From a virus, in IMG/VR virus record IMGVR_UViG_3300045738_002037, positions 64,001 to 128,000 of that record: a stretch of DNA of 64,000 nucleotides; one strand, given 5' to 3'. A program made the position numbers and the translations under genes. Positions 3,144-55,624 of this stretch are shown here, in pieces (within the stretch, counting starts at the first letter, position 1; the number at the start of each line of letters is the position of its first letter). Under the pieces are notes generated by a model that was not told where the DNA came from, did no database searches, and saw nothing but the letters and a program-made list of their open reading frames with translations.

Positions 3144-3147
3144 TAAT

Positions 3148-20776: not shown

Positions 20777-21313
20777 TTAAGTAACAGTCGACCATTGACC
20801 AGCGATTTTTCTAACATTCATTGCTTTATCTACAAATTCATTATATGCTTCTTCACACATATAAATATCAAGATATCTATCATCAACAACTGTGTCAGCG
20901 GGTTTTATAAATTCCTTGTTTCCACAATCCTTACATGGTTCACCCACTACCGCAGCATGCGCCCCGCAATCAACGCAAATATTTGGCTGGCCAGTCATTC
21001 TAACATCGGCCCGCACCACTTGACAAAAGTAAAATTCAAAAGTTCCAGTTAATACTTTTCCAGTTAAATCGCAGCAAACAGAATTTCTAATAGCTTTATA
21101 GTTCTTTTTAACATCTTCTGCCACATTCCCCATACATTTTTCACACACATCTAGCGAAAATATCACATTACTAGACAATATACTGTCAATTGGCGGTCTA
21201 AGATTATCATTTACAGTAACATTTCTTATATCAAAAGAATAATACCTAAAATCAGTTCTATAAGAAGTACCGCATACGTCACACGCAATACCATCACGAT
21301 CTTTAAGTTGCAT
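20777..21313 (-). CDS. Cys-rich protein with internally repeated zinc-finger module
   Basis: ACDVCG..LDVCEKC and CCDLTG..IYMCEEA halves, plus CVDC/CKDC. Confidence 0.7.
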   Translation of the reverse strand: MQLKDRDGIACDVCGTSYRTDFRYYSFDIRNVTVNDNLRPPIDSILSSNVIFSLDVCEKCMGNVAEDVKKNYKAIRNSVCCDLTGKVLTGTFEFYFCQVVRADVRMTGQPNICVDCGAHAAVVGEPCKDCGNKEFIKPADTVVDDRYLDIYMCEEAYNEFVDKAMNVRKIAGQWSTVT

Positions 21314-31837: not shown

Positions 31838-32220
31838 TACGATGTAGACAAAGAAACAACTGGGTCAACAGCATGATTGGCGTACCCCGCAGAGCCAACC
31901 TGTAACAGCCCTGGCAATCGTAACCATTCTTGTTGACCATGATTCCAACCAGTTTGCTGGCCGGAACCACTTTCGAGTCGAGTTACAGACTCACCGGTTA
32001 AAGCTGCCTGAGCTTCTGCCGTTGTAACCCTGGCTTTATCATCTTTAACTACAGTAATGTTCGATGGATATGCTATTTTGCCTTCTTTGTTTGGCGGCAC
32101 TTGCACAAAACCATTAATAATTGGAAAATCCCTGTATATGTAAATATTAGCCATATTATTTTTCCCTATGTGTTTAAACATCTCCCCATGTGATTCATAA
32201 TTTATGTTTGGTCGGGCCAA
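31837..32220 (-). CDS. Hypothetical (putative virion) protein
   Basis: Directly downstream of the giant ORF. Confidence 0.6.
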   Translation of the reverse strand: MARPNINYESHGEMFKHIGKNNMANIYIYRDFPIINGFVQVPPNKEGKIAYPSNITVVKDDKARVTTAEAQAALTGESVTRLESGSGQQTGWNHGQQEWLRLPGLLQVGSAGYANHAVDPVVSLSTS

Positions 32221-41200: not shown

Positions 41201-44200
41201 GACCATCAATATAGTCTTCTGAAATTCCCTGTATCCGTGAATGCCCATAATTATCAATAACACAGAAATCACTTGGCATCCATTTAATAGATTTAGGATC
41301 TAAATCATGGCCAGTCAGAAATCCATCTGAACCATCAACATCGTGCTGAAATGCAGCTTCAAGTGCTAAAAGCGGTTCATAATCAAACACTGTGCCGTCA
41401 ATGTCGCCGGAATACGCTCCCGGCGGAAGGTTATCTTCAAGAGATCTAACCAATAAACCTTTGGTGTTAGTGTTATCCTTGCCAGGTCCAGAGCCTTCTT
41501 CTATCTTTTTAACTGCTTTTTGCGGGCCAGCGCCATCATAAACAATAACCCCGCCCTCAGCAGTATCATCGGCAAGATAAGCTCGGAATTTTAAATCGTA
41601 TGGAAATATGCCGTCTTGCGTCGACGTTGATTCTTCTTTAAAGCTAATTTTTAATTCTGGGGACCATGGGCTATTTCCCATAGTGTTATAAACTATACTA
41701 GCTAAATCGCTAATATATTCATTGTCTGGATCATCAGCAAGATTAAACGGCGAAGTACCGTCAAAATGCTGATGTAACGACGGAGGCACGCCGTTAACGC
41801 TACCCCATTCCGTATCCGTCCGACTGGGTTGCCGTTTCCTTGCATCAGGGTTAGTATAATGGTCTTTGCCCCATCCCATACTATGGAACGATTTTGAATT
41901 ATAAAAACCTGGAGTAAGCAGAGCCTGGTTTCCTGCCGCTTGATCGATCCAAAATAAATTAAAATAATGTAAATTATTCGAATATTTTGATGCCAATTCT
42001 TTTATCAACGAAGTAACATTAACTTTCACACGTTTTAGGGCATACAGATGGCTCCCCTCGTATTCTTCTCCATCATAGCCATGATGATCTTCATCACTTT
42101 TTCCAATAACAAATTCAGTAGTACGTTCTCTTTTAGAAATTAATTTGCTGTCATCGCCGGGTTCAACTATAATTCTAAGCCTGGGCGCAAAATCTTCACC
42201 TTTAAGCGAGTGTCGAGAGCCTACAATTGTCCTAAACGCAGCATCTCCATTTAATGTTTCTTCATCTGGCACCCACATATATGACAGAATGGATTTGCCA
42301 TCGTCAAGTATTTCTTGAGTGACTTCAGTGACATCGCATTCAAAATTTCGAAATGCTCTTTCAGACCCTGTAAAATTAAAAGTCTTGTAAGCAGTTGTTC
42401 TATTTCTACTGAGAACCGAAACCTCATCGCTCAACGAAGATTCATAAGTGTCAACAAACGGATACGCTTTCACATTAGACCCACTACTCAATTCGCCATA
42501 TAATTTGCCATATACATTTTGGTCGCCGCCCTCTATGAATGTTTCATGGTCAGGATCGTAGTCATCTGCGCCATTTAATATTAAAACAGCACTTTTAATC
42601 TTTTTGCCGACCAAATCATCAGAGATTTCTGAACCATGAAACATAAAACCAACTGCTCGCGTTACTAACTGGCCAGAGAAAGCCGTTGGAATTGGGATCC
42701 CGGAAGCACTAGCGCCTCCATGGGAAGTTACATCAGGATATTTTCCAAATCGCAGTTGCCCATTATCGCCTGGAAAATCCCCAACTTCAATCAACCCATT
42801 GCCAACGCCGTCCATGCGCTGCTCGGCGTCCTGTTTACCAGTGGCTGACTGGTCCAATATTGGATCGACAAAACGAACTTTAAACTCATAGAGATAAGCG
42901 TTCTCTTCCGACCATTCATCAGGTTCATTTGAATCTTCTGCGTACCATTTGCCGTCAAAATCAACCTGCCCAGCATTATTAAGATGAGTATCAATTGAAC
43001 CTTGCGTACTATTTTCGGCCAATCGATCAGGCGGCATATACATTATTAATTCTGCAGATTCAATCTCCCTACCGCCGATATCAAATTCGCTATGGAATCT
43101 AAGACCGACATGTCTGTGTCCACCCATTACACGGGCAACTGAGCCTGATAGCTGTGGGTCCCTAGCCAAAGCATGTTCGTCGTAACCTTTATTGCCATGC
43201 CCAAATTCTATTGCATCGTTTCTTACAGTAACGATTCCTCGCTGCTGGAAGCCCATGGCAATGGGGATATCGTGCTCGTTCGCTTGCCAATAATTTTGTG
43301 TATAGTAAATAATTTCTTCGGCTGCGTCCTCGGCACGATTCACTTTACATCTAGAGATTGTGTTATTATAACCCTTGCCGGGCAGATGCTCAAAACCATG
43401 ATCGTCAAATGACGCATCTTTAGGAAGCAACACTTCAATATCAGCAACAATTTCTGCCGCGTTAGGATAATACGTATTAACTGTTCGCCAAATTCTATCG
43501 CCATGGTTTATGATCGCAGAATAACGACGGCCCGAAAGTATGTCGGTCGGATCATATTTGCCTAAAATTTCTGGCCATTCCGATGTACCATTGCCGACAT
43601 TTCCATATGGCGAATTAGCGGTGGCAATACAAAACGGCGATATGGTATTTGTTTGTTCCTGAGTGCGAGCAAGCAAAGAAGTTTTTAAGGTATTCGCGTC
43701 TGGAAATAAAAAATTTCTCGTCGAATGTAAAATAACTGAAACTGTTTGCCCCGCAGCAACAGGAACACCCTTGGGATATAAAGTATTGATTAGATCTAAT
43801 GAAACCCATTGGCCATCGCCGGTCACATTCACGTCGATATGGAAAGAAGCTAAACTCGCCCCAGCCGCAGATAGATCATCGCCGTCGATTATCTCCACAG
43901 ACATTGTGCCCGACAGCGATTGCTCGCACGTGGGATCCCATCCAGCGGACCTCGACGTCCCACGCTGCCATAACGAACCTACGTCGGACGCGTGATCAGT
44001 AGAAATACGTATTGCGTCTGCAAAAACCGGAACTCTCATCTCCGTTTCAGGAAAGACCACCAATCCTTCATGCTGGTACATTATTACTTCAATTGACTGA
44101 CCTTCTTCTACAGTAAGGATACCGTCCGGATTTGGGGTAGAAGCTAAAATTTCCCATGTAGCACTTGTTATCAAAACAAGACCAGGTGGTGGCACACTCC

Positions 44201-47200
44201 ACGGATTGGCGGTTTCATTTAGAGCGGGGTCGTACTCGGATACGGTCTTACCAGATGGCGCTCGAGCTTTAAATGAATTGGGACTGACACTTTGATCGAC
44301 GTATGCATCATAACGACTGCCCACCGGAACATCGTCAGCACTTAGCAATTGATAAGTGAATTTCACGTTGTCATGGCCAGGGACGCTGCCAAGCTGGTTT
44401 CCGTAGCCGCTGCCGCCTCCAGGCATCACAATCGACGGCCATGTGGCAGATATTTGATAATCACCAGCTGGCAGATCACGAAATTTCCAAGTCGCTGTTA
44501 ATAGGTCTGGCCCATGTATCGATGGCATATCCTCTGAAGAAAAAGCAATCTCATAGGACCCACCCCAGACTGAGTTTGGATTGCCGCCTTTTCTCCAATC
44601 GACGTCGTCATGCATAATATAGCTCTGATAGCCCCCGCCGTGGGGCATCCTGAGAAATTCTGTCTTCTTTCCTGCGATCCGGGAAGTATAATTCTCGTCG
44701 TAATTGTCAATTATATATGTGTTAACTGTAGGAAGGCGACGCGGGTCAGGGCTTTTTCCATACAAATAAACTTCAAACTTTGAAAAATATCCACTATTGT
44801 CAAATCTTATTGTCTGACCTATTCTATCCGCGAACCGGCCCGGTAGTGTCGGTTGTGCTACGGAGCTAAAAATAGGAGAATCATTTTGAAGATATGGAGG
44901 ATATATTGTCGCTAATGTAGTGTCAGTGTTAAGTTCACTATTCCAAATAATTTGCGGGCTGGACATAGCCCCATAAGGATGCGTTTGTTCCTCAATAAGC
45001 TGCTTTTGATCTATCACAGAAGTTGAAATATTATCTAATAAGGTTAATTCAAGCGGTATGTGCTCACATAATAACAATGTGCCGTTCGAATTAAATGAAC
45101 TATAAACCGACGTCTTGTGGGTATTATATTGTTTAAACGCTAATTTAGCTTTTGGTATATCGTTATCATCATGAACTCTTACTCCAGTCCCAGAATTCTT
45201 GCTGATTCTTTTAACTGGAACTTTAGTAACAGGGTCTAAACCGGATTCTAAAAAATCACCTGAATATTTGACATCCGGCAGATCCATACTAGGAATCGTA
45301 CCAACATAGTCATATACTGCGCTTTTTAATTGTTTTGGAACAGTCCACTTAGAAGCAGGGCCACCACTAGGAGGGTCATCTGAATCTCCAGACAACTGAC
45401 CGATAAATAGATCACCGCTTGGCCCAAGTGGAATTGGCAACAATGTTTCAGAATCATACGTTCTTGACGTTCCACTATATGACGGATAAGTCACAAGCAC
45501 GTCAGACGTCGCTGACAAAGTTTGACCATTTTGATCACGTCTATATCCAACTTCAAATCGTTTTACATATCCTGTTCCATTTACTATATCATTTTTAATG
45601 CGGTCATCATCCGTATCGCCACTAGAATAAGTTTTAGACGATGTATTAAACGACGATCTGGACGAATTCATTCCGACATTATCTAAAATGGTTCTATAAT
45701 CATTAGACTTCATCGCCGTAGAACTGATTAAATCTAAATCACTTTTAACAACCCAATTTGCCGCATCATCATAAGATGTTACAAACGATGCGCCAGTTAT
45801 ATTAAATGGTCCAGACCCATTGCCGTCATCCCAAATATGAGCATCAAAACTTACATCTGCGTCATATCCGCCACTAGAATCCGGTACAGGAGAACCGGGG
45901 CGCGGAACAAGATAATCATTTGAAATTAATTCATTGTCTTCTAAATAAACCGCCACTCCATCTTTAGCGCCAGCCCCATCTTTCTTATACACAAAAAATA
46001 GCCCAGTAAAATTCGTGTATGGCGGTTGTCCTTGTGTGGAACCAGTAAGAGCAGTCGGCGGTTCATTTTTAGCCCATGGTCTGGTGTTTCGACCAGGGAC
46101 AACAATATTGCCTAACACAGAAACCTTGGGGCCTTCCGTGCCAGCGCCAATCACTTGGAATACTTGTTGCTGAGGATTATAAATGATGGAATTAGTACAT
46201 ATAGCACTATTTTCTTTACCAACATAACCATTGGCAATATTAAAAGGATCTCTTTTATTAAAATGGGCAAATACACATTTTTTAATTTGAACTTTGTTTA
46301 CACCAGAACCCATCGATAAACCAGCAGATTGACCTTGCGCGCCCTCTAAACCTTCCGCAATTATAGAATTTTGAATTGTTACATAGCTAACTTGCCCTTC
46401 TATATTGGCACTATAGTCCTTTGGTTCTATATCAACTATTTCATCAACACCCCACGACAACGAACAATGATCAATCAAAATATTTTTAAGAACATTGCCC
46501 CAAGGCTTATTGTGCCTATACTTAATTTGCAAAGCATCAGAAGATTCACCATTGGTCTTAGTTGACCGATGCCAGCCGGATCTTATAGCAATATGTCTTA
46601 ATAAAACATGGGGCGCTTCAATTGCTATAGACGCGCCGATTACAGTTATTCCAGGTTCAGGTGCAGTCTCGCCAGCAACAACGCAATTTGGTTCCGTAAC
46701 GACCATGTTTAACATACGCTTATAAACGTTAGGCTGAGGATTAATCCTAGTGCTTTTTCTAAGATCAATAATACCGCCTACTTCAAACACAATAATTCTT
46801 TCACCAGGAGTCGATAAGGCATGGTGAAGAGTTATGTCGCCTTCTACATAATCCGGATCAGTATCATCTGCCGCTAGAGAATTAACTTTTATGACTTTAA
46901 CACTATCAGAATCTGAATTATCTGGCGAAAATTCACCGCTAATAACTAGTTCTGCGTCTGAAAAGCGGATTTCATTATCACTAATATTGCCGCCACTGTA
47001 TCCAAATAATAATATATGATGGTCTATTGTGTCCGGCGCACTACCGCTAAATATTACTTTCCCAGGAGCAATAGCAGTCATCAATACGTTAAAAAATTCA
47101 AATTCACTAGGCCCAACTGGCGATAAACCATCCACACCGCCAGCGTGCTCAATGCTTCCTTCTTTAAGATTGCCCGCTTGACCAAAGCCGTCATACGGAC

Positions 47201-48077
47201 TTACATGCCCAATGGTGCCTTTATCTTCTGTTAAATCCTTATTATAAGTGATATTTAAATAGGCAGCGAATATCCCAGATGAATAAGCAGGATTTTGGTC
47301 TTCTCGTAAATCTTGAACAAACGCGCGAATATAATATTCTTCGCCCACGTTTATATTAGATATAGGATTACCACTTGCGTCAGTAGCGGCAATCCTAATC
47401 TGCACTAATTCATGGCCAGACAACGGCGACACCACATTGCCAACAATAGGTACAATGTCTGGCATTGACATTGAAGACGGCACTTCAGGAACAGCGACTG
47501 CTTCAACAACACCAGGGACCAATGGCTGATCCTCTGGAACAAGCTGCACCAACCTCTTTACATTATTATAATATTCTGTGCCAATAATAGAAACTAAATT
47601 GCCGGATAACACAGTCCCAAATGTACCGCCACTACTGTGATCCCATGCAAACAATTCCCCGCCGGGAGTTATATAATAATATTGCCTACCTATATTTCGA
47701 CTATCATAGAACGGCGCTCCAGTAGAATTATATTCTACGAACCAATTGCCGGTTATCCATTTTTCATTTTCGCCACCAAAATTAAGATAATGATTAGCAC
47801 TACCACTTAAAGCAAATTCGAATACAGAAGCATCAAAATCACCCAACACTAATACAGAATTCGCTTGCTTTCCTTGCGGCGAATCAGCTGGAAAAGCTTC
47901 GATCTCTTTTTGCGTAACACTGATTAATTCGACAAACGTGGACTGGCCTATTTCATCATTAAAACCAACATTGTCCCACACAGAATTGTCGGAACTTGGT
48001 TGCGCATTATTGCCGCTCTGACCAACGGCTTTCCGCACTGCATCAAATCCATCAGACATAAATATACCGTCTTTCAA
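32202..48077 (-). CDS. Giant (5,291 aa) mosaic adhesin/polysaccharide depolymerase; probable ATG at 48059
   Basis: Two pectate-lyase-like beta-helices (RIIVFEVGG, VAGETAP, IDHCSLSWG), cohesin-like VQDLR..GIFAAYL, golvesin-like ATWKF..YQISATWP..ADAIRI, YWTD-type repeats, poly-Thr linkers. Confidence 0.85.
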   Translation of the reverse strand: MKDGIFMSDGFDAVRKAVGQSGNNAQPSSDNSVWDNVGFNDEIGQSTFVELISVTQKEIEAFPADSPQGKQANSVLVLGDFDASVFEFALSGSANHYLNFGGENEKWITGNWFVEYNSTGAPFYDSRNIGRQYYYITPGGELFAWDHSSGGTFGTVLSGNLVSIIGTEYYNNVKRLVQLVPEDQPLVPGVVEAVAVPEVPSSMSMPDIVPIVGNVVSPLSGHELVQIRIAATDASGNPISNINVGEEYYIRAFVQDLREDQNPAYSSGIFAAYLNITYNKDLTEDKGTIGHVSPYDGFGQAGNLKEGSIEHAGGVDGLSPVGPSEFEFFNVLMTAIAPGKVIFSGSAPDTIDHHILLFGYSGGNISDNEIRFSDAELVISGEFSPDNSDSDSVKVIKVNSLAADDTDPDYVEGDITLHHALSTPGERIIVFEVGGIIDLRKSTRINPQPNVYKRMLNMVVTEPNCVVAGETAPEPGITVIGASIAIEAPHVLLRHIAIRSGWHRSTKTNGESSDALQIKYRHNKPWGNVLKNILIDHCSLSWGVDEIVDIEPKDYSANIEGQVSYVTIQNSIIAEGLEGAQGQSAGLSMGSGVNKVQIKKCVFAHFNKRDPFNIANGYVGKENSAICTNSIIYNPQQQVFQVIGAGTEGPKVSVLGNIVVPGRNTRPWAKNEPPTALTGSTQGQPPYTNFTGLFFVYKKDGAGAKDGVAVYLEDNELISNDYLVPRPGSPVPDSSGGYDADVSFDAHIWDDGNGSGPFNITGASFVTSYDDAANWVVKSDLDLISSTAMKSNDYRTILDNVGMNSSRSSFNTSSKTYSSGDTDDDRIKNDIVNGTGYVKRFEVGYRRDQNGQTLSATSDVLVTYPSYSGTSRTYDSETLLPIPLGPSGDLFIGQLSGDSDDPPSGGPASKWTVPKQLKSAVYDYVGTIPSMDLPDVKYSGDFLESGLDPVTKVPVKRISKNSGTGVRVHDDNDIPKAKLAFKQYNTHKTSVYSSFNSNGTLLLCEHIPLELTLLDNISTSVIDQKQLIEEQTHPYGAMSSPQIIWNSELNTDTTLATIYPPYLQNDSPIFSSVAQPTLPGRFADRIGQTIRFDNSGYFSKFEVYLYGKSPDPRRLPTVNTYIIDNYDENYTSRIAGKKTEFLRMPHGGGYQSYIMHDDVDWRKGGNPNSVWGGSYEIAFSSEDMPSIHGPDLLTATWKFRDLPAGDYQISATWPSIVMPGGGSGYGNQLGSVPGHDNVKFTYQLLSADDVPVGSRYDAYVDQSVSPNSFKARAPSGKTVSEYDPALNETANPWSVPPPGLVLITSATWEILASTPNPDGILTVEEGQSIEVIMYQHEGLVVFPETEMRVPVFADAIRISTDHASDVGSLWQRGTSRSAGWDPTCEQSLSGTMSVEIIDGDDLSAAGASLASFHIDVNVTGDGQWVSLDLINTLYPKGVPVAAGQTVSVILHSTRNFLFPDANTLKTSLLARTQEQTNTISPFCIATANSPYGNVGNGTSEWPEILGKYDPTDILSGRRYSAIINHGDRIWRTVNTYYPNAAEIVADIEVLLPKDASFDDHGFEHLPGKGYNNTISRCKVNRAEDAAEEIIYYTQNYWQANEHDIPIAMGFQQRGIVTVRNDAIEFGHGNKGYDEHALARDPQLSGSVARVMGGHRHVGLRFHSEFDIGGREIESAELIMYMPPDRLAENSTQGSIDTHLNNAGQVDFDGKWYAEDSNEPDEWSEENAYLYEFKVRFVDPILDQSATGKQDAEQRMDGVGNGLIEVGDFPGDNGQLRFGKYPDVTSHGGASASGIPIPTAFSGQLVTRAVGFMFHGSEISDDLVGKKIKSAVLILNGADDYDPDHETFIEGGDQNVYGKLYGELSSGSNVKAYPFVDTYESSLSDEVSVLSRNRTTAYKTFNFTGSERAFRNFECDVTEVTQEILDDGKSILSYMWVPDEETLNGDAAFRTIVGSRHSLKGEDFAPRLRIIVEPGDDSKLISKRERTTEFVIGKSDEDHHGYDGEEYEGSHLYALKRVKVNVTSLIKELASKYSNNLHYFNLFWIDQAAGNQALLTPGFYNSKSFHSMGWGKDHYTNPDARKRQPSRTDTEWGSVNGVPPSLHQHFDGTSPFNLADDPDNEYISDLASIVYNTMGNSPWSPELKISFKEESTSTQDGIFPYDLKFRAYLADDTAEGGVIVYDGAGPQKAVKKIEEGSGPGKDNTNTKGLLVRSLEDNLPPGAYSGDIDGTVFDYEPLLALEAAFQHDVDGSDGFLTGHDLDPKSIKWMPSDFCVIDNYGHSRIQGISEDYIDGQNLTVGIDANDRRILKVIKLDTDGETPVKKRKRFPFYILNCASSVPVHKTVVLDNGESVERSYMAVIGTPYGSCDTVGGLRCDAAGGSTGSNDTWTDNVTNRPVTAHGAYNGDLWLYIINLNSILESTTSDYGEEVIAAFNLSGVNEREIYESYYNHPAFATSFITGIGGQDTGLWPTELFASVSDPGTIHVRQDIVTVDGTNYFVGPDEESLQFSQDGRHVLVKYAGVDVQGKSRDIWRMFDVGDFAYKATNPSWSRPFADDSRKPSVDRKPNVLVGQNEIQRFTVSWSNTSNASFRIFKRYKNHPDRTAIIPASVFRSAGGLTGNDRQNNYSSSKFEKYMERQFNNYSPAGLNYHRSTTDGNRVWAENPDACVVRFVSNVKARGKPETYRRSVGSKIVERGWPGRPDVYTVVFDVEWSGTKGNTPPAGTNQIIHYLAAYDRLRTVFGSRPARYMEPTGRVEIIQEGTYCNPHIWLNRAESKAFGYNCEPGQPRRTLIPLVAAVVAGVTVVDNLVGPIYRPGTSGNAVADYKDYGIRPHNFSYLDTGLLDGRGTDQGGHLLTDRGATRGVIPLNQISALSFAYGQKFLDITTAAPDQFLAIASDSWADVTIADSYDCTGLVRTTTTTTTTAVPDITVQKLYYVSNSDNNGLPNTIRRWPPERLELGKNKWLDAPNDEILVSDQDGATDIAIDNINQKMYWTIATSVQNSSIPNPAGAVPSVGKIMRADLDGTNVEDITPPGGRSINPHGIALDVVRGKMYWLEDHVDDSAARGEVRRANLDGSGEQLLTTTDPPLQSSKSLTLEEVPNYFTSKSAPTDNIISDIKTYNLGSSIESIVYSGALRLITGSRGSAKLTFPASVDLTNILVENVQSGPKALFSTGTQLSPLGYTYTATKTTFFPFKPEPNYHFAAVESLFYGIQDSTGSQLVGKQSWMPVNKVSEVVVMLDRQWLVQDIYRPPRSPVIGQYNTRLRYHIYKGYCSDAALAIAKRQMTAAAFRTYKRDCQNRCIRNGQYYYPSQSPCSFNNNHALDKYIADSGYFGFDIDNQKFLRNLHPVCERRPHDAPAYDSIGVVDRVPYPPYTSADTASGETRKHDVYEGTILRYFGAPVARDPVKDGPGVFDYSYGDPGYEAYRKSHSFAPNMTGSQTKVFSWPIPASIDLLFIDPWGNTPLSSDHISGLKDWLALGHKRLVILGGHHSDFANHKTGSAYHDLVQQLDVGITVKNVHVGASSNWRAKRSSGHPLVDGGASRLEHLGLYRPSRLALDLENGHMYWTEYATADADGPYPGRLRRANLSGSSKVILRDGLTGIDNVRGIDLDVKNQHIYLSTVETIPPRTNDNRYPEHGTAKILKLDFDGSDVSTVGSRLPRGVLFNYHYSLGPQSPNDIILDLDNQYVYVANHMAYERTADIAKGDHIQRFGFGGDGSVILSLQVCPPATATGVALAKVVMPAFDVQLQDADLLRHIAGGVIPLYDSKDDIYPNGRIGRIVVLNCTKSSEFEDRVSYEINPRKGFWSCPDNWAALSNPTSVKFESQQYEAKIYDITGLQNPIRLRSGGRRDFSTLHAAYAFVAYGPDREYNADNTINITGGLYRDEIVAYNVEDPNVGMVRLTHTRTNAWTKGVPGSGGKPAVVLPEPEGNISTEFSDVSDVNVLKVTTLSPTGPGSLYEALTTQGPRIIVFEVGGVIDFRNADELQGESAGRDVILPINIDIPNCVVAGETAPDPGITIIGTALLVRASNVLIRNIYIRHGDHDKASTGIEATGQGVALGVIAHGPDPTIENILIDHCSLSWGLQACAKIQPSTVAGSTCRYITFQNCIISEGLSSPTGAPGLLMSAADAETGSNHILVKRCLYAHIGVAGPFDNTSARAQGQMANSAICVNSIIYNPQFHAASVSGAGLSGPQLAMLGNIVVPGLFTKAYRKNRLSNLEGGNEYSHDGTDFTGLLYVRSQSAETIAIYLNDNELIKNAHLTGDGGFDYDVSIDARRSDPPWNGISGTPVTSFVNSYAATGLNDWLNKDTDLDLITSAVLKVDNYSILLNDVGANTSRSSFNGVAYSGGDSIDDRIKNELLNLTGGILLGLEQGSETKAGWEDAVGGYPTYDLVSRIYDPSTLDPVPIGPNGNHIVGKDGYDPSTDSFADPFYAKPNLIVSSDGTKLVYNSTWTGEGGTHVNAPYGPYVPGYHLLIDLVEAQLVGPVDGTTTTTTTMPPDSNSRNGIGVLETPVAEFSGQGDYLPFVCEVVNVILKPHADFFRDSPTETCSPAGSCLINPIVTTGSAADHNNDERMTVPGLVWSGLSGYNTLSNGTVVNNGIGPFYPNIIDPDDGKFVQSWGQIFAERELIIGFNGVDMNPGDNSGPHVDVNWNEVIAINKATLTLKFDNIQQQQFDLLPSDGIGTEITLYKDIHNYSPYGEPCAIDQFEISKVYPSPCRNPNHSFFAAEHFRRTISRSSDINPRQLPSTWAEDRDVRVTHDNKIDVCPEVFDGSCDRLNGLFVGIRRLSWSRASVGGANNIIAAVETIPLSDGGDILGEVVLIADTTFLMYESFSRGGQTGLSGLANNRENQQFMVNLYPECNPTVGASASVVNVVGYKSFAENDRNYPINMLRVFGSRNLFPAAQGLYVKGGHVGPISGTDSNGRDLAFAKLVMIDPLTVLSPDDVQNIKNWMLLGEGRRVVVVYEYEVADTSRARAILEALGTKMRPDPQDRVTNAGTWQARPISGHPIIDGIDPYDANDLAGRSIRLCDKISTVFYGGIVPIDFNNGNARPLLLGGIVCPNYPDCEDNPEAQDSAPRYNGTKLLSMSLELELEICDEIVPHTTTTSSTTTEEPDISTNASDGGVILGNISGSGFGSSCLPEALQTEICLDFVPPPPYDYPEKYVPDPKDFEEVIVEPCALVLTANKSVRLELERDLFDPNRTYEGSLATVKLLTRAKGYDVNKYAPYLRVGNRLRATSYDTVVATGMSIILVDKSMDVSRREGLILDRITSREILPDRMRWPDQT

Positions 48078-48572: not shown

Positions 48573-49403
48573 ATGCTTACATTAAAAATTTCCGACTCAA
48601 TAACTATCGGCAATAATGAATTAGCAATAATAACCGGGCCGTGTGTCATCGAATCTAGAGACATGGTGCTGACAATAGCTGAAAAAATAAAAGAAATCAG
48701 CGAAGAATTGTCTATTCCAATAATATTTAAAGCATCATTTGACAAGGCCAATAGAAGCTCTATAAAATCCTATAGAGGGCCAGGAATAGATGATGGACTA
48801 AAAATATTAGACGAAGTTAAAAGCCAATTCGGTCTATCTGTAACAACTGATATCCACGAGCCATCGCAAGCTGCTAAAACAGCAGAAGTATGTGATATTT
48901 TACAAATACCAGCCTTTTTATGCAGACAAACAGACCTGTTAGCAGCTGCCGCTAGCACTGGCAAAACAATAAATGTTAAAAAAGGTCAATTTATGGCACC
49001 ATGGGATATGAGCAACGTTATTAACAAATTATTAGAATGTAACAATCCTAAAATTATGCTTACAGAAAGAGGCACGACATTCGGATACGGTAGACTAGTA
49101 AATGATATGCGGTCAATACCGTTAATGCGCAAATTTGGATACCCAGTAGTGTTTGACGCAACACATAGCGTACAGCTTCCAGGTACTGGCGGCGATAAAA
49201 CTGAAGGCGAAAGGCATATGGTTCCGACACTTGCTAAAGCAGCTATCGCATGTGGAATTGATGCTTTGTTTCTTGAAACCCACCCAGACCCAGATAATGC
49301 TAAAAGCGATGGACCAAACATGATCGAATTGCACAAACTACGCAATTTACTCACCGATTGCCTAAAAATACATAAAGTAATCAGGGAATGCCGCGAAAGA
49401 TAA
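48573..49403 (+). CDS. kdsA: 3-deoxy-D-manno-octulosonate 8-phosphate synthase
   Basis: GPCVIES, KASFDKANRSS, QIPAFLCRQTDL, KKGQF, ERG, DATHSVQ, SDGPN. Confidence 0.96.
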   Translation: MLTLKISDSITIGNNELAIITGPCVIESRDMVLTIAEKIKEISEELSIPIIFKASFDKANRSSIKSYRGPGIDDGLKILDEVKSQFGLSVTTDIHEPSQAAKTAEVCDILQIPAFLCRQTDLLAAAASTGKTINVKKGQFMAPWDMSNVINKLLECNNPKIMLTERGTTFGYGRLVNDMRSIPLMRKFGYPVVFDATHSVQLPGTGGDKTEGERHMVPTLAKAAIACGIDALFLETHPDPDNAKSDGPNMIELHKLRNLLTDCLKIHKVIRECRER

Positions 49404-49433: not shown

Positions 49434-49940
49434 TCAGAATAACAATTTCTTTATTTCCGCCATTCTACTATCCATCCACGCTAATGGATTAGAATATTTA
49501 ACTAGACCAACATTGCTAAGATCAGCAATGTTTATAGATTTAGACCAATCTTCATCATCCATCAACATTGATGCTTCATCACTTTTTATAGAATAATAAA
49601 CAACTCTTGAAATATGATTCGCAGCAATATTTAACATGCATGACGAGCATGGCCTACCAGTAACGTATATCGTGGACCTGCTCAGATCACCATAAGAATG
49701 CCTAATCGCATTGGCTTCGGCATGAACAATATATTTATATTTTGCGGGCCGCGACCAATCTATTTTATCATCTGGTATTTGTTCAGGCGGGCCATTATAA
49801 CCCCACCCTCTGGGCCTATTGTCTCTGTCTATTATAATAGAGCCACATTGTGTATGCGGGTCTTTGCTTTTAGATGCTACCCAAAAAGCAAGCCCCATAT
49901 AAAATGAATCCCTGTCGGGAACCAACCTAAATTCAACCAT
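49434..49940 (-). CDS. dCMP deaminase
   Basis: SKDP, GYNG, HAE, PCSSC. Confidence 0.93.
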   Translation of the reverse strand: MVEFRLVPDRDSFYMGLAFWVASKSKDPHTQCGSIIIDRDNRPRGWGYNGPPEQIPDDKIDWSRPAKYKYIVHAEANAIRHSYGDLSRSTIYVTGRPCSSCMLNIAANHISRVVYYSIKSDEASMLMDDEDWSKSINIADLSNVGLVKYSNPLAWMDSRMAEIKKLLF

Positions 49941-49943
49941 TGC

Positions 49944-50372
49944 TTATTTATCTGCCCACTTTTTAACCATGCGCAATATACGGCCTTGTTCTTTTTTTGC
50001 CGCTGTAGATGAATCGAACAAATAAGATTCCGGCATCCATTCCTCTTCATTGCTAATATAAAAGAATTCACCTGTGTCTTCGCTCCTAGCAACATCGCAA
50101 ATCTCGAACTGTTCTACTTCAAGCTTGGAAGTTAAAAACATAACTATTGCTTGAAAATCTATGTGATTTAATTTAGGCAAATGTGCCCTTGAATTCCATA
50201 CATTTTTAGCTATTCTTCTGTCATAGAAAACTTTAGGATGATGCTCAAGCATCCACTCATCGCCAACAGGCACCATCACATTAGTAGCACCAACCGGTCT
50301 TAATGTTACCCACCAAACCGATTCGCCTACTTTATATCTTGATAATTCTAGTACTGATCTTATCGGGGGCAT
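49944..50372 (-). CDS. Hypothetical protein
   Basis: ORF in gene run; YKVGESVW. Confidence 0.65.
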   Translation of the reverse strand: MPPIRSVLELSRYKVGESVWWVTLRPVGATNVMVPVGDEWMLEHHPKVFYDRRIAKNVWNSRAHLPKLNHIDFQAIVMFLTSKLEVEQFEICDVARSEDTGEFFYISNEEEWMPESYLFDSSTAAKKEQGRILRMVKKWADK

Positions 50373-50384
50373 AATCCTTTGCCC

Positions 50385-50600
50385 TTAGCCGCATATCACC
50401 CTGTTAATAGCTTGATTAATAATGTTTTCAGCTATAGTTTTGGTGACGCCAACAGCTACTGGGATCCATTCTTCGTTTTCTTGAACTTCAATTTGATATT
50501 GACCAGTGTGAATGTTTTGTCCTTCCATCGGCACGGCACGAACCTTACCGGGGCCAGCTTTCTTTATTCTCACAATAGCTTCATTGATATTTACCGCCAT
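50385..50600 (-). CDS. Hypothetical protein
   Basis: GGAG RBS. Confidence 0.65.
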   Translation of the reverse strand: MAVNINEAIVRIKKAGPGKVRAVPMEGQNIHTGQYQIEVQENEEWIPVAVGVTKTIAENIINQAINRVICG

Positions 50601-50649
50601 AATCGCGCTCCATGATGATGATTTGTATTAATTTTGACCCATTACCTAA

Positions 50650-51435
50650 TCATTCTGCTATTTTTAAAAATTGTTCATAACTTTCTTTAAAAATATCCTG
50701 TTTATTCAGTCCATCAGAAATTCTTTTTCCAAGACCAAACTCCATAAAGTACCAACCATTATAGCCAATTCCTTTAGAATCATCAATGGTTTGTTTTATC
50801 ATAGAGTCGCCAACGCCAACAACTTTAAACCCATATCCTATTTTATAGTCCCTAACATCAATCGCTGCGACGAATTTTCTAATATTTTTCCAATATTTAT
50901 CAAAGGGATTTATGTTTCTTTTAGTAATTAATTGCACTGGGTCATATAATAGCCGCCAGTGCCTATTATTGCCCAACAATTCTAATATAATTGGAATATC
51001 ATGGCTATATGGAAAATCATCGGTTATTTCAAACAATGGAATAATACCAGCTTTAGCGCATTCGGAGGCAATCAACGCCATCCAATCATTTATAATGTCT
51101 TTATTTCTACTGGCGTTTTTTATTCCACCGAATATTCTAACATAATTAGCTTTGAAATATCTTGTAATAGATAAAGTTCTATCAATTGTTTCTGAAGATA
51201 TATTTCCTAAATCATTACAATCAATAAGACCGAGGTTAGACGCAACCATCGGGACAGATAAGGAATACTTATCAATTATTCCTTTAAGCTTTTGACACGT
51301 AGAATCGCTAAGATCGCAAATATTGCCGGTCCAAACTTGGCGAATTACAACATGTTTAATATCACATTCCTGCAAAGTTTGACATGCTACATCTGGGGTA
51401 TCGCCTGCGTCATTTAAATAGGCTGCTATTTTCAT
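50650..51435 (-). CDS. Sugar phosphate isomerase/epimerase-like TIM barrel (AP endonuclease 2 superfamily)
   Basis: YVRIF, LFE, LYDP, DVRD, VGVGD, GYNGWYFME; ATGA overlap with purZ. Confidence 0.75.
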   Translation of the reverse strand: MKIAAYLNDAGDTPDVACQTLQECDIKHVVIRQVWTGNICDLSDSTCQKLKGIIDKYSLSVPMVASNLGLIDCNDLGNISSETIDRTLSITRYFKANYVRIFGGIKNASRNKDIINDWMALIASECAKAGIIPLFEITDDFPYSHDIPIILELLGNNRHWRLLYDPVQLITKRNINPFDKYWKNIRKFVAAIDVRDYKIGYGFKVVGVGDSMIKQTIDDSKGIGYNGWYFMEFGLGKRISDGLNKQDIFKESYEQFLKIAE

Positions 51436-52547
51436 AAATACGCCACATGGTCAATTTGTGGCCCAGTGCCCACAATAGTCACTGGCAACAACACCAAATC
51501 TTCGATCATTTCGATGAATTCTTGAACTTTTGCCGGTAATTTTCCGTAATCGTTGGTCCCATAACATGACCAATCAATATAATTAGCAAAATTTAACGCG
51601 ATCTTTGTCGCACCATTTACTACAACAGCTTCTTGTAATTGAATTTTAGAAAGCGAAAACACTCGGCGTAACCTTTTGGTCACTGTGGTAAGTTCACCTT
51701 TCATTACTTCTGGAGGCGCGCCTGCGGTTTCAGCAACTTCGGCCCATGTGATCTCTTGATGGTCATCATAACAATCACCCGAATACCCAACAGTTTCTCC
51801 ATTTTCCACCACATTGCCGACCCTAATGGGATATGGCCTAATTACTAAATATACGTCTCCAACTTTATAAGGCGAAACGCCCATATCGGCTAAATTGTAA
51901 ACAGCAGTTGTGCCTCTGCTAGTACAATGGGGATAGTGGGATCCGTGATTTATATCTAACGAAAACCCCTGCGCGCCTTCATGCAATATCGTGTTGCCAT
52001 CATTCATTAGCTTATTTAAATGTGTTGGCATGTAATAATCTTTAACGTTTGGAACATATGGCAATAATTCTTTATAGTCTCTAGCAAGCTTCAGTCCCGG
52101 TTTTCTCATTGCTTTATCTGCTAAAAAGGCACCACAGCCTTGCATCGTGCTAGCAACACTTTTCGTTCCAGTTTTTAAATTCTCCTCTGCTTCTTTATGC
52201 TCATGCGTGATCACACCGGCTCTGGGGTGTATCACAGTATTTTCAGCCACATCGCATTCATCTATTTCTTTTAGCATCTGGTCAATGGTGAACGCGGCTG
52301 AAGGCCCAACTAGTATAGATGGGCTATATTCTCCATCGGTCCATTTTTTTAAAATGGCAGCGGAGGGCAGCGCTTTAGCCACAAACGCATCGCCGTTGAT
52401 ATTGATCGCCGTATGGCCAGCATTGGCCATGTTCGTGGTAGAAAGGACTTCTGGTTTATACCGGTCAGCCAACGCAGAAGTAATTAAGCCCTTCCCACAG
52501 CTTCCCCATTGCCCATCTGTTATAATATTAAATTTCCCTGCTTGCAT
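51432..52547 (-). CDS. purZ: PurZ-type N6-succino-2-amino-2'-deoxyadenylate synthase (PurA homologue)
   Basis: DGQWGSCGKG (Ser for catalytic Asp), NMANAGHT, EGAQG, YPHCTSR, PIRVGN, ELTTVTKRLRRVF, LNFANY. Confidence 0.82.
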   Translation of the reverse strand: MQAGKFNIITDGQWGSCGKGLITSALADRYKPEVLSTTNMANAGHTAININGDAFVAKALPSAAILKKWTDGEYSPSILVGPSAAFTIDQMLKEIDECDVAENTVIHPRAGVITHEHKEAEENLKTGTKSVASTMQGCGAFLADKAMRKPGLKLARDYKELLPYVPNVKDYYMPTHLNKLMNDGNTILHEGAQGFSLDINHGSHYPHCTSRGTTAVYNLADMGVSPYKVGDVYLVIRPYPIRVGNVVENGETVGYSGDCYDDHQEITWAEVAETAGAPPEVMKGELTTVTKRLRRVFSLSKIQLQEAVVVNGATKIALNFANYIDWSCYGTNDYGKLPAKVQEFIEMIEDLVLLPVTIVGTGPQIDHVAYL

Positions 52548-52580
52548 TATATAGTCTCCATAAATAAATCAGCATAAATT

Positions 52581-52586
52581 AAATAC
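52581..52586 (-). promoter_or_regulatory. Candidate phage promoter element GTATTT upstream of purZ (one of about 8 similar sites)
   Basis: Same hexamer, on the strand of the downstream gene, in several intergenic gaps. Confidence 0.35.
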
Positions 52587-52608
52587 GCACTAAATATTAT
52601 AAATAGCG

Positions 52609-52977
52609 TTATCTAAGAGAAGAAGAAACTTGGACATCATATCCATCGTCTTCCCAATTTTTATGTTGCGCTTCTTTATTTAATTTGCCAACTGAAGACG
52701 TAGATTTGTCCAATTGACTAATAGCGTCGGGCAAAGGCATAACTTTGACCACTGCGTCAATTACATCATCTTCTTCCATTTCAATAATAGCCACAAGATT
52801 TTTCTCTTGTAACTTAATTTTATATTTTTGGGCTATTAATATAGCACCTAATTCATCAGCTAATTTAGACATTTGTACTGAGATATAGCGACGTTGCGAA
52901 TCAAGCCATTCATCAGATCTGGTTAAAAGATCGGCATCTTCGCCTATTTCATGAATCATGCTTAATATGTTCATCAA
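52609..52977 (-). CDS. Hypothetical protein
   Basis: ORF in gene run. Confidence 0.55.
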   Translation of the reverse strand: MMNILSMIHEIGEDADLLTRSDEWLDSQRRYISVQMSKLADELGAILIAQKYKIKLQEKNLVAIIEMEEDDVIDAVVKVMPLPDAISQLDKSTSSVGKLNKEAQHKNWEDDGYDVQVSSSLR

Positions 52978-53275
52978 TTTTTACCCAAGTGTCAGGAACC
53001 CAAGTCATCATCCCATGAAGTTCAATTCTAACTAGTTTGTGCTTCCTATCACGAACTATCGCAATTTCATCATGCCAAGGATGTTCTTTATTATTTATTT
53101 TTACAATTGTGCCCTCTTCTATTTCTGGAATTTCTACTTTTAAATGTTTTGAACCACCTATTTCCACATGTTCAATAATTATATTTACTAATTCTCCACA
53201 AATTTTGCATCTATTGGCATCATCTTTATTTATTATGTTACTTGTTCCACATTTCTGGCAAGTTATAGTATTCAA
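52949..53275 (-). CDS. Zinc ribbon plus KOW/SH3-like protein
   Basis: CQKC/CKIC; GTIVKI..HPW. Confidence 0.6.
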   Translation of the reverse strand: MNTITCQKCGTSNIINKDDANRCKICGELVNIIIEHVEIGGSKHLKVEIPEIEEGTIVKINNKEHPWHDEIAIVRDRKHKLVRIELHGMMTWVPDTWVKIDEHIKHDS

Positions 53276-53961
53276 CTTAAAATCTCTTTTAATTGATCAG
53301 GCTGTCTTTGCACTTCTTTAATTATGTTTTTAATCTGAGCTAAACTAACAGCATATTTATAAGCATCTTTACATAACATTATAGATTTTACATCTTTTAT
53401 ATTACCACTAACTTTTATCGGCACACTTATAATTTCTTTTATTTTGCTAATCATCTCATTGTGTATATCTGGATTAGCTTTACTAACTTGCAATTTTAAT
53501 TGATGATTTGTTCGTAAACAACTTGGAGACGGCACAAATTTCATTGCTTCGCAGATATCTGTAATATTTTCATCAGAATGGTGCATGCCAAGAACAAATC
53601 TTATCTCAACAGTTGGCGAAATATGGTTTCTAACAAAATCAGTTAAAACAGACATTTCGTTTTGACAATCCGCTTGAGACCTGCCCCCGGATAATAAAAA
53701 CTCAAATCCATCACAACTTAAAGAATCTATGGTCAATCCTCGTAATTTAGTATCACCATAGCATTCCCCTTTAGGCCAGTCAACCGGAGTCAATATTTTA
53801 AATTTACCCTGCCATTTGATCCTTTGCAACAAAGCATCAGCAGATATTTCTGGGTGAACAATTATAGACGGAATCGCATATTTCACGGCTAACTCTGCAA
53901 CATCCGCTAATTCATTAGACTGCATAACATCTATTTCAATATTATTGAACAAAGCATTCAT
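53272..53961 (-). CDS. DeoC (deoxyribose-phosphate aldolase)-fold protein, degenerate active site
   Basis: IIVHP, VDWPKG, IKVSGNIK; KTSTG Schiff-base motif appears as RTNHQ. Confidence 0.6.
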   Translation of the reverse strand: MNALFNNIEIDVMQSNELADVAELAVKYAIPSIIVHPEISADALLQRIKWQGKFKILTPVDWPKGECYGDTKLRGLTIDSLSCDGFEFLLSGGRSQADCQNEMSVLTDFVRNHISPTVEIRFVLGMHHSDENITDICEAMKFVPSPSCLRTNHQLKLQVSKANPDIHNEMISKIKEIISVPIKVSGNIKDVKSIMLCKDAYKYAVSLAQIKNIIKEVQRQPDQLKEILS

Positions 53962-53975
53962 GTTACACCTTTATA

Positions 53976-54371
53976 TCACTTAGAAGATAATTCTATAACT
54001 TTTTTGATAGCTTCGGAACTATCACAAGTTTTAAATACTATAGGATTATTTTCATCAGTCAAATAATGAAATGATGTGGGTACATAGTCCTCTTCTTCCA
54101 TTAAAATAACTATTGGTATATTTTTAGCATATGCATAGCCAAATTCAAAGTGTGATCCTTTTCTTGCTGGCGTAACCATTAAGATACAGTCAGAATCATC
54201 CACCCCCCTAACCTCTGCCAAAGCGATATTCATCAATTCACTTTCGTCATCACAAAAACCGTGGAGCGTCCAATCATAAGTTATAGTAACGCCATGTTCT
54301 ATTAACTGATCTCTCAGTTGGCGAACTCTATCTTTATTATTAAGGCTAGACGCTATATAAACGTTTTTCAT
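53976..54371 (-). CDS. Nucleoside 2-deoxyribosyltransferase / nucleotide N-glycosidase family
   Basis: VYIAS, SDCIL, GSHFEFGYA with catalytic Glu, NIPI. Confidence 0.82.
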   Translation of the reverse strand: MKNVYIASSLNNKDRVRQLRDQLIEHGVTITYDWTLHGFCDDESELMNIALAEVRGVDDSDCILMVTPARKGSHFEFGYAYAKNIPIVILMEEEDYVPTSFHYLTDENNPIVFKTCDSSEAIKKVIELSSK

Positions 54372-54643: not shown

Positions 54644-55624
54644 TCATTTTTGAACACGATCTATTATCATTGAAATAGCATCTTTATGGCCAACTTTATT
54701 AAATTGACCCACAAAATCCCAATTGTTATAGTCAGAACAGAATGTAAATTTGTTTTTTTCCTCGTCAGTTAAAATTGTTGCGGCATAATCATAATATTCC
54801 GCTTCATTTTTGAATCTTATTTTTCTAATGTCTGGATTCACATCTGGGTTTGTCCCATAAAAATGCAGCCGACCATTTAAACCATCTGGGTCCATATCAC
54901 ACCCAAATATATAAGTGTGCTGATATCCGATCCACATAGCAATTTGCATGCTCGCAAAAACCGTGGATCTGCCAATATGAAATCCTTGTGTTAAGTCTCT
55001 ACTAAAACCCTTGCCGGGTATATTCTTTATCTGAAACGAATTTGATTTATTATGCCTTATCGCAGTGCTGTTTATTATTATGCCATCATATTCTTTCCAA
55101 AGATCTTCATGTCGAGCATATTGTGATGAATCACAAAATGTCCAATAAGTAGTCGGCCATAAACGAGGATCTGGTTTATTTATAGACATAATGTCAATAT
55201 GTTCAACGCCAACTAATTTCTCTAGAGAAACTTCCGTAATAGACGGCCCATTGCCAATAACAACTAATATCCTATTAATGCCGATACCACGAATTTCTAC
55301 TATCTTATTTCGAGATTTTTGCGTTATTTCCGGATCATCAACGTAGTTTACTCTAACTTTCTTCTTAACCTTCTGTGGATGTTTTACAACAACATATTGC
55401 GCGGCTAAATCTTTAGCAGGATTCTCAGAAATAACAGGTGCAGACGGCAATTGTTGAATTTCTCTCACGCCTATTTTATTCAAATTCTGCCGGTTTATTT
55501 CATCTAATTTTACAACTTTTGCTTTTGATGGTTGAATAATTACTTTAGCAGTACTCGGTACTCGAATAGCCTTTGGAAAATTAACAATTTTATGTTGGCG
55601 TATTATTGGATGCTTTTCTGGCAT
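54644..55624 (-). CDS. Maf/MptE-like (DUF115) or GT42-like sugar transferase with N-terminal extension
   Basis: VIGNGPS, STVFASMQIA, IYIFGCD-like TYIFGCD, HFY. Confidence 0.7.
   Translation of the reverse strand: MPEKHPIIRQHKIVNFPKAIRVPSTAKVIIQPSKAKVVKLDEINRQNLNKIGVREIQQLPSAPVISENPAKDLAAQYVVVKHPQKVKKKVRVNYVDDPEITQKSRNKIVEIRGIGINRILVVIGNGPSITEVSLEKLVGVEHIDIMSINKPDPRLWPTTYWTFCDSSQYARHEDLWKEYDGIIINSTAIRHNKSNSFQIKNIPGKGFSRDLTQGFHIGRSTVFASMQIAMWIGYQHTYIFGCDMDPDGLNGRLHFYGTNPDVNPDIRKIRFKNEAEYYDYAATILTDEEKNKFTFCSDYNNWDFVGQFNKVGHKDAISMIIDRVQK

Follow-up and report, generated by a model that had tools for sequence, protein, structure and literature searches.

A conserved pair of NDT-fold and DERA-like genes beside purZ in uncultured jumbo phages: a candidate variant of the DmtZ-type strategy for adenine exclusion

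How would a phage that probably makes DNA containing 2-aminoadenine (Z) keep adenine out of its genome if it encodes neither DatZ nor MazZ? This question is raised by a group of genes at positions 49434-54371 of a stretch of viral DNA 64,000 nucleotides in length (hereafter, the window), which represents positions 64001-128000 of the 156,696-bp IMG/VR virus record IMGVR_UViG_3300045738_002037 (completeness 43% by CheckV). An initial annotation had described at this locus a co-oriented cluster comprising an NDT-fold gene, a DeoC-fold gene, purZ, a TIM barrel gene, and a dCMP deaminase gene, and all five were found at those positions, in one orientation on the minus strand. Z-DNA phages serve as a model for rewriting the chemical alphabet of a genome and offer enzymes to synthetic biology, and two solutions to the exclusion of adenine are known, namely DatZ/MazZ and DutZ/DmtZ. 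With about even confidence, we read the cluster as a nucleotide-pool module of an uncultured jumbo-phage clade that probably makes Z DNA, and as a jumbo-phage variant of the DmtZ-type strategy. The module contains a conserved and often overlapping pair of genes that encode the NDT-fold protein (NDT131) and a remote homolog of DERA (g229), and this pair, which persists to ~25% identity, is an undescribed element of the module.

Along the minus strand, starting at 54371 and ending at 49434, the order of genes is NDT131, g229, two small open reading frames (ORFs; g108/g122), purZ, the TIM barrel gene (TIM261), two further small ORFs (g71/g142), and the dCMP deaminase gene. Pfam and PHROGs place the deaminase, PurZ, and NDT131 above their cut-offs and TIM261 weakly, and they return nothing for g229. 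The purZ gene (51432-52547, minus strand) encodes a protein of 371 amino acids that is predicted to be a 2-aminoadenylosuccinate (dSMP) synthetase acting on dGMP. The earlier assignment of this gene as a real purZ was borne out by matches to PF00709 (8e-40) and phrog_1211 (5e-63) and by a tblastn search of GenBank phages that returned 214 matches, all of them PurZ-type; those listed (among them S-2L, phiVC8-like phages, and Bacillus phages) are 33-37% identical to the query. In the P-loop, GQWGSCGKG, Ser16 occupies the position of the catalytic Asp13 of PurA and aligns to S14 of phiVC8 PurZ, a replacement that is kept in 11 of the 11 aligned PurZ relatives. Likewise, W14, T287, F320, and Y323 align to F12, T262, F295, and Y298 of phiVC8 PurZ, where F12 and T262 belong to the pocket for dGMP's 2-amino group and F295 and Y298 to the NTP site (10.1101/2025.10.22.683976); PurA of E. 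coli has G, K, and V at the T262, F295, and Y298 positions. The window PurZ is a genuine PurZ with a complete set of hallmark residues, and activity on dGMP is predicted. A PurZ tree had long branches and was too poorly resolved to show where the clade stands with respect to PurZ and PurZ0, and its placement relies on residues instead. The PurZ0 of phage Ghobes has Gln at the Y298 position, whereas the window PurZ keeps the equivalents of F295 and Y298, as do PurZ of the phiVC8 and S-2L type.

Two side observations concern PurZ in relatives. The closest relative (G006), whose PurZ is 70% identical to that of the window, encodes a Lyase_1 protein (PF00206, 3.5e-34; L073:1288-2337, minus strand) that is possibly a PurB of its own, and a PF00206 protein was found in no other clade record. 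In another relative (L015; IMGVR_UViG_3300045256_000294), the purZ frame spans 1,212 codons (L015:6869-10507, plus strand) and PurZ residues 208-371 match only the end of the frame, while the ortholog of g326, a gene just upstream of NDT131 in the window, is 682 amino acids long (L015:2656-4704, plus strand). These enlarged frames look like inteins or other large in-frame insertions.

The window PurZ resembles the synthetases of the S-2L and phiVC8 clusters (PurZ-DatZ-MazZ/DUF550, with or without DpoZ) in its Ser and its T262/F295/Y298 equivalents and in its 33-37% identity over the full length; unlike those clusters, the window clade has no HD-type dATPase and no MazG/DUF550 pyrophosphatase. 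Specifically, no match to PF01966, PF12917, PF13023, PF03819, PF04447, or PF18909 was detected in the 43%-complete 156.7-kb record or in the two relatives that served as near-complete references (G001, 408 kb, 100% complete; G002, 354 kb, 98% complete). The HD/YfbR/HD_3 and DUF550 families are valid probes because DatZ of S-2L matches PF12917, PF13023, and PF01966 and MazZ of S-2L matches PF04447. Searches with the S-2L DatZ and MazZ proteins, both by tblastn and at the protein level, also returned nothing. An HD protein in a distant relative (G004) was considered as a possible DatZ and rejected, since its HD domain is of the CCA-adding-enzyme type. The earlier statement that no DatZ or MazZ is recognizable in the 64 kb therefore extends beyond the window to the rest of the record and, given G001 and G002, to whole genomes of the clade (~350-410 kb, i.e., uncultured jumbo phages). 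It follows that purine exclusion in these phages must work in another way.

A candidate for this role is NDT131 (53976-54371, minus strand; 131 amino acids), which matches PF05014 with 38.1 bits against a cut-off of 28.8. Among 19 relatives, Y5, N12, D33-W34-T35, E53, P68, G72, H74, E76, and F101 are invariant and position 8 is Ser or Thr, in agreement with the initial annotation of an NDT fold that had kept its Tyr and catalytic Glu and that had a Ser after the first strand. The catalytic triad comprises Y5, E53, and E76, where E53 aligns to an Asp of MilB and E76 to the Glu of GTHVE, such that Glu takes the place of the Asp (or Asn) of the triad. An AlphaFold 2 (AF2) model of NDT131 (pLDDT of 91.8) had DNPH1, MilB, and BcmB, as well as NDT, as its top Foldseek matches (TM ~0.7). 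When the family profile was compared to the PDB, BlsM (4e-6), BcmB (2.9e-5), and MilB (7.5e-5) ranked ahead of nucleoside NDTs (8e-4); in this match, which spans only ~50-68 residues, PARKGSHFEFGYA aligns to PASPGTHVEIGWA and the two sides have the motif P-x-x-x-G-[ST]-H-x-E-x-G-x-A in common. Nucleoside NDTs hold the 5'-OH of their substrate with an Asp at position Glu-6, where the NDT131 family has Arg or Gly. The suggestion that NDT131 resembles the monophosphate-binding members of the superfamily is thus upheld by both profile and fold, as its nearest solved relatives are BlsM, BcmB, MilB, and DNPH1. However, identity to these four is only 13-19%, their substrates are CMP or hydroxymethyl-CMP (hmCMP), or hydroxymethyl-dUMP (hmdUMP), and various deoxynucleoside monophosphates (dNMPs), they have Asp where NDT131 has Glu53, and NDT131 stands in the context of phage purine modification.

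An NDT-fold enzyme with a role in Z phages has been described. Poubanne et al. (NAR 2026; PMC12884076) report on PurZ0 actinophages without DatZ and MazZ, in which DutZ converts dATP and dGTP to dNMPs and DmtZ, an NDT-fold enzyme, cleaves dAMP to adenine and deoxyribose 5-phosphate (dR5P) and also transfers dR5P from dAMP onto Z. The structures nearest to DmtZ are DNPH1 and MilB, its Asp12 is essential and is proposed to contact N6 of adenine, and its catalytic Tyr has been linked to the exclusion of ribo-substrates (PMC12884076). In addition, aquatic contigs with dZ modification were enriched in PF05014 in the work of Yang et al. (bioRxiv; 10.1101/2025.10.22.683976), who also characterized one NDT, which prefers dA. 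The core idea that an NDT-fold enzyme removes dAMP is therefore not new, because DmtZ was published in 2026 and the link between NDTs and dZ contigs in 2025, and the earlier description of the locus as an undescribed way to exclude adenine does not stand.

The window clade resembles the DmtZ/DutZ system in several respects: both have a PurZ-type synthetase, lack DatZ and MazZ, and carry an NDT-fold gene near purZ with a triad of Tyr, then Asp, Asn, or Glu, then Glu; in addition, complete clade genomes carry Dut-family genes, and the proposed logic in both is removal of adenine at the level of dAMP. A W-T-x-H-G motif is also common to NDT131 and Ghobes DmtZ (which we recognized at L023:17693-18178 by the published residues), and where DmtZ has its Trp124 lid, NDT131 has another aromatic residue, F101. 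In contrast, the DmtZ phages are actinophages of ~45 kb, whereas those studied here are jumbo phages of ~350-410 kb with a Pol III alpha, and no dut gene is adjacent or fused in the window clade. DmtZ scores 18 bits against PF05014 compared to 38 for NDT131 and apparently represents a separate lineage, and neither its Asp12 nor its Pro57 is conserved in NDT131 (the Pro57 position is Ile30). Lastly, Ghobes and Wayne have no counterpart of the DERA-like g229, and neither PMC12884076 nor 10.1101/2025.10.22.683976 describes a phage aldolase-like or TIM-barrel partner or any jumbo phage. Collectively, these comparisons make it plausible that NDT131 is a dNMP N-glycosidase of a lineage different from DmtZ and suggest that it is probably a functional analog of DmtZ.

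The second member of the pair, g229 (53272-53961, minus strand; 229 amino acids), had been described as a DeoC-fold gene, and this holds for its fold and for a remote homology to DERA, albeit not for an ordinary DeoC. No Pfam (E of 0.01; PF01791 was not matched) or PHROG match was obtained. However, every top Foldseek match of its AF2 model (pLDDT of 89.8) is a DERA, with TM of 0.70-0.76, six DERA entries reached Z of 18.3-20.3 in VIA-align where other folds reached at most 16, and its Atlas neighbors are DeoC clusters (TM of 0.77). A HMMER search of 1.84 billion proteins recovered 219 g229 cluster representatives, all metagenomic, and zero DERA, and HMMER profiles of g229 found nothing in the PDB. 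Comparison by hhalign with a single DeoC sequence was uninformative, and significance was reached only when the broad g229 family was aligned to a 17-sequence DERA alignment (probability of 92.6%, E of 4.5e-7, 176 columns). Members of the family were likewise absent when g229 and TIM261 were searched by tblastn against 50,697 GenBank phage records, when a pattern for g229 was scanned against 185,579 prokaryote genomes, and when IMG/VR was scanned with the single g229 protein, although the scan of IMG/VR with alignment A1 did recover members. Based on these results, g229 is a remote homolog of DERA, i.e., a DERA-derived TIM barrel. It is also a conserved partner of the NDT gene.

The active site of g229 departs from that of DERA. 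In the hhalign alignment, E87, R150, K183, and G186 of g229 correspond to D102, K167, K201, and G204 of DERA, and the pairing of R150 with K167, the Schiff-base lysine on strand 6 in E. coli DERA, was also obtained by MAFFT profile addition. Thus, g229 has the same barrel as DERA/DeoC, and it keeps equivalents of D102 and K201, which belong to the proton relay, along with the Gly that the phosphate loop has on strand 7, whereas 98% of members have Arg in place of K167 and no Lys corresponds to K137. Among 257 members, position 183 is Lys in 245, position 87 is Glu or Asp in 256, K72 is invariant, and R121 is nearly so. In the six members with Lys at position 150, position 183 is never Lys (V, I, I, T, I, and A occur) and position 121 is Cys or Ile. 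From this swap, the active site appears to need one lysine, and the residue patterns further suggest that most members have this lysine at the K201 position, next to Arg150. The Schiff-base lysine of g229 therewith appears, from these alignments, to have moved from strand 6 to strand 7.

The association of the NDT gene with g229 was evaluated in two sets of IMG/VR contigs. Among 18 contigs from close relatives, purZ lies within 2 kb of g229 in all 18, and the NDT gene is directly upstream of g229 in 15, often overlapping it, with one further contig where it is 13 kb away. Among seven contigs from distant relatives, in which g229 is only 22-28% identical, an NDT-superfamily gene is directly upstream in six, mostly overlapping, and purZ lies within 4 kb of g229 in five. 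The gene g229 is associated more tightly with the NDT gene than with purZ, as illustrated by L173. The co-occurrence with purZ that had been proposed as a check on the locus is thus seen for the NDT/g229 pair in most contigs; by comparison, the TIM barrel is limited to close relatives (15 of the 18 close contigs versus none of the seven distant ones) and the deaminase is movable. Other genes surrounding the pair in the distant contigs encode RNase T-like, DCD, ThyA, DHFR, NUDIX, and glutamine-synthetase-like proteins. A side observation here is that the glutamine-synthetase-like gene (PF03951/PF00120) lies a few kb from purZ or g229 (L048:13360-14424, L075:8325-9437, L076:12472-13521) and that a gene encoding DUF6378 directly follows purZ in L075.

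A supply of dAMP could come from dNTP pyrophosphatases encoded elsewhere in these genomes. In each of the two complete relatives there are two genes of the dUTPase family and a single NUDIX gene, and the distance from purZ to a Dut-family gene is 20-33 kb in four records (G001, G002, G003, and G005). One dUTPase-family copy in the complete relatives (copy A) is divergent, with an insertion, and stands beside a ThyX-like gene in L020 and L022, as it does in G002; the other (copy B) has an N-terminal zinc-finger extension of 90-240 amino acids. The dUTPase-family and extension-bearing loci of relatives are L021:1246-1821, L022:1492-2046, L019:1498-2085, L020:1429-2178, L017:1219-1896, and L018:1495-2598. 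Either of these genes could be an analog of DutZ, and the Dut-family and NUDIX genes together could act as suppliers of dAMP.

From the gene identities, folds, and residue patterns, the absence of DatZ and MazZ, and the pairing observed above, we infer the following reactions and substrates. PurZ would condense dGMP with aspartate, and PurB and kinases of the host would complete the synthesis of dZTP. NDT131 would cleave dAMP, originating from the breakdown of host DNA and from the Dut-family and NUDIX pyrophosphatases, to adenine and dR5P, and, like DmtZ, it may in addition pass dR5P on to free Z. The released dR5P would then be taken by g229, most likely through Schiff-base cleavage by the lysine that appears to have moved from strand 6 to strand 7, and its removal would drive the glycosidase reaction and supply glycolysis with carbon. 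The TIM barrel, the dCMP deaminase, and KdsA, encoded by a gene adjoining the cluster, would be accessory. The more specific proposal, which we advance tentatively, is that NDT131 and g229 form a new two-enzyme unit for dAMP destruction, with a MilB-like glycosidase that splits dAMP and a DERA descendant with a relocated lysine that cleaves the dR5P set free. A large uncultured clade of Z-DNA jumbo phages would thereby irreversibly exclude adenine at the level of monophosphates and without any dATPase.

Several observations weigh against this reading. The closest sequence relatives of NDT131 (MilB, BlsM, and BcmB) act on cytosine nucleotides, and Asp12 of DmtZ has no clear equivalent, as position Tyr+6 varies and, by residue counting, it is Tyr+7 that holds the invariant Asn12. 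In tblastn against the 50,697 phage records, NDT131 had only marginal matches to unrelated phage NDTs and did not reach Ghobes or Wayne, and hhalign against Ghobes DmtZ gave a probability of 40% over 59 columns that include the WTxHG motif and the catalytic Glu, such that the two are not detectably close. No Dut or NUDIX gene was found in the 156.7-kb, 43%-complete record, and one contig (L076) keeps g229 and a DCD gene with no NDT gene or purZ within the 14 kb covered. The cytosine-nucleotide relatives, the lack of a clear Asp12 equivalent, and L076 would be accommodated if NDT131 were instead a pyrimidine-specific or general N-glycosidase that sanitizes dNMPs (as MilB and BlsM act on CMP or hmCMP and DNPH1 on hmdUMP) and that, with g229, recycles sugar phosphate; exclusion of adenine would then fall to the polymerase or to Dut/NUDIX enzymes. 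The same cluster often contains a dCMP deaminase or DCD gene, and the PxxxG[ST]HxE motif is common to NDT131 and the cytosine-nucleotide glycosidases, both of which are consistent with such a role. However, the NDT gene accompanies purZ in 9 of 13 clade records, including both complete genomes, and the records without it are fragments. Moreover, Tyr5 is the residue tied to exclusion of ribo-substrates (PMC12884076), and the only NDTs of Z phages for which there are experimental data prefer adenine substrates (PMC12884076; 10.1101/2025.10.22.683976). We therefore consider a sanitizing role for NDT131 unlikely.

Other observations that count against the preferred reading concern the grouping of the genes and the chemistry of g229. 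Synteny is no less strong for four other genes (g180, g453, g251, and g326) than for the nucleotide genes, and because all contigs represent one collinear phage lineage with equally syntenic unrelated genes, adjacency is weak, if suggestive, evidence. It could be that the grouping reflects this collinearity only and that NDT131, g229, and the TIM barrel serve sugar or glycan metabolism with g326, KdsA, a CMP-sugar synthetase, and glycosyltransferases; the adjoining kdsA gene, the GT2, GT1, and BNR genes of the window, the CMP-sugar synthetase (PF02348) in 8 of 11 relatives, and the resemblance of the TIM barrel to sugar-phosphate isomerases point in that direction. This is rather improbable, as KdsA is found in just 2 of the 11 records, NDT-fold enzymes use nucleosides or nucleotides rather than free sugars, the NDT/g229 overlap outlasts change in most other neighbors, and distant relatives have genes for nucleotide enzymes (ThyA, DHFR, DCD, and NUDIX) around the pair. 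With respect to g229, position 150, which corresponds to the Schiff-base K167, is Arg in 251 of the 257 members and Lys in six, four members have Lys at neither 150 nor 183, and in L009 and L010 no NDT gene is next to g229, which is still beside purZ. If g229 were not an aldolase, its barrel might have been adapted to bind, in a pocket formed by Arg121, Arg150, and Lys72, a ligand rich in carboxylates or phosphates, perhaps dSMP (as a substitute for PurB) or another phosphosugar, which would fit both the nearly invariant R121 and K72 and the lack of PurB (PF00206) in both complete relatives. Known Z phages rely on PurB of the host, however, the lysine swap suggests that lysine chemistry has been kept, g229 retains its tightest association with the NDT gene and a DERA-like phosphate loop on strand 7, and we regard this explanation as very unlikely. 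A predicted complex of NDT131 with g229 scored 0.00, which is neither support for binding nor evidence against it.

If the module works as a jumbo-phage variant of the DmtZ-type strategy, the clade would extend the DutZ/DmtZ-type solution to jumbo phages with a PurZ-type synthetase by way of an NDT lineage that was apparently recruited independently, and g229 would add a partner enzyme that is absent from PMC12884076 and 10.1101/2025.10.22.683976. The g229 family can further be viewed as a natural experiment on relocating a class I aldolase's catalytic lysine, with relevance to enzyme evolution and to the engineering of DERA. What the window adds is mainly the residue analysis of g229 and the distinction of which neighbors are accessory.

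Among these neighbors, TIM261 (50650-51435, minus strand; 261 amino acids) is a xylose-isomerase-like TIM barrel by prediction from sequence. Its description as a translationally coupled, isomerase-like barrel holds insofar as its start overlaps the stop of purZ in ATGA and it matches PF01261 weakly (26.3 bits, below the cut-off of 31.1; precomputed PF01261 assignments exist for 11 of 19 homologs); its absence from all distant contigs sets it outside the core. The best PDB profile match is AsbF (E of 0.005). Invariant acidic residues (E136, D165, D193, D196, and E232) are spaced, in our reading, like the metal-binding and catalytic tetrad of the PF01261 family, and no His is invariant, such that among PF01261 barrels (AsbF and sugar-phosphate epimerases) TIM261 is a weak family match. 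The metal site of Endo IV relies on His ligands, and an Endo IV-like AP endonuclease was accordingly rejected. TIM261 is a clade-specific accessory with a predicted TIM-barrel fold.

The dCMP deaminase (49434-49940, minus strand; 168 amino acids) matches PF00383 (54.7 bits against a cut-off of 25) and phrog_174 (4e-31) and has the HAE and PCSSC (PCxxC) zinc motifs. In relatives, the gene sits elsewhere or is replaced by a DCD-type gene, which is inside the cluster only in L044 and L076. The deaminase is predicted to supply dUMP for dTMP and is not a fixed part of the module. The gene for KdsA (Kdo-8-phosphate synthase; 48573-49403, plus strand; PF00793, 1.7e-75), between the deaminase gene and g134, was rejected as a part of the module given its presence in 2 of 11 related records, in one of which (G007) it is beside a CMP-sugar synthetase gene. 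Neither gene is core because both are shifted or missing in relatives.

The small ORFs between g229 and purZ (g122 and g108, the latter a zinc-ribbon protein; 52609-53275, minus strand) have weak zinc-ribbon matches in Pfam and no significant ones. Most close relatives conserve them, and L046 and L173 also contain g108. Those 3' of the TIM barrel gene and before the deaminase gene (g142 and g71; 49944-50600, minus strand) are conserved with no Pfam or PHROG match, and Atlas gave only unnamed viral clusters for them. The gene g71 (71 amino acids; 50385-50600, minus strand) lies near purZ even in the most distant contigs (L044:11757-11960, L046:3535-3735, L075:9462-9722) and may be a further conserved component.

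Just upstream of NDT131, g326 (54644-55624, minus strand) encodes a putative CMP-sugar glycosyltransferase of the MptE-like/DUF115 type with a GNGPS motif, and its orthologs have weak PF01973 and faint WaaZ_KDO_III matches. Its MptE-like nature and the CMP-sugar synthetase in most relatives together indicate a separate glycan function, and g326 is thus syntenic but probably outside the Z pathway. Other glycan genes of the window encode a GT1-like protein, a 697-amino-acid double GT2 protein, and a BNR (sialidase-like) protein (1361-5241, minus strand, and 27286-28353, plus strand). Together with g326 and the CMP-sugar synthetase of relatives, they suggest a system for modification of virion or host glycans.

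Two polymerase genes, which the initial annotation did not name, are present in the window. The first encodes a short and divergent family-A (PolA-like) polymerase of 398 amino acids (11727-12923, minus strand; PF00476, 33.4 bits, just below the cut-off), which is the only one of family A, and the second a Pol III alpha-like subunit of 897 amino acids (21313-24006, minus strand). Near these are genes for a gp32-like single-stranded DNA-binding protein, a DnaB helicase, RecA, a 5'-3' exonuclease, and a Cpn10 homolog. A blastn search of the module region against the 50,697 GenBank phage records gave no match, and a scan for promoters and terminators performed no better than on shuffled sequence. 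Just downstream of the module, a single ORF of 5,291 codons with a TTG start (32202-48077, minus strand) lies in a region of raised G+C content (0.41-0.45 versus ~0.35 elsewhere), and a Logan copy of the same phage also has this giant gene of 5,291 codons.

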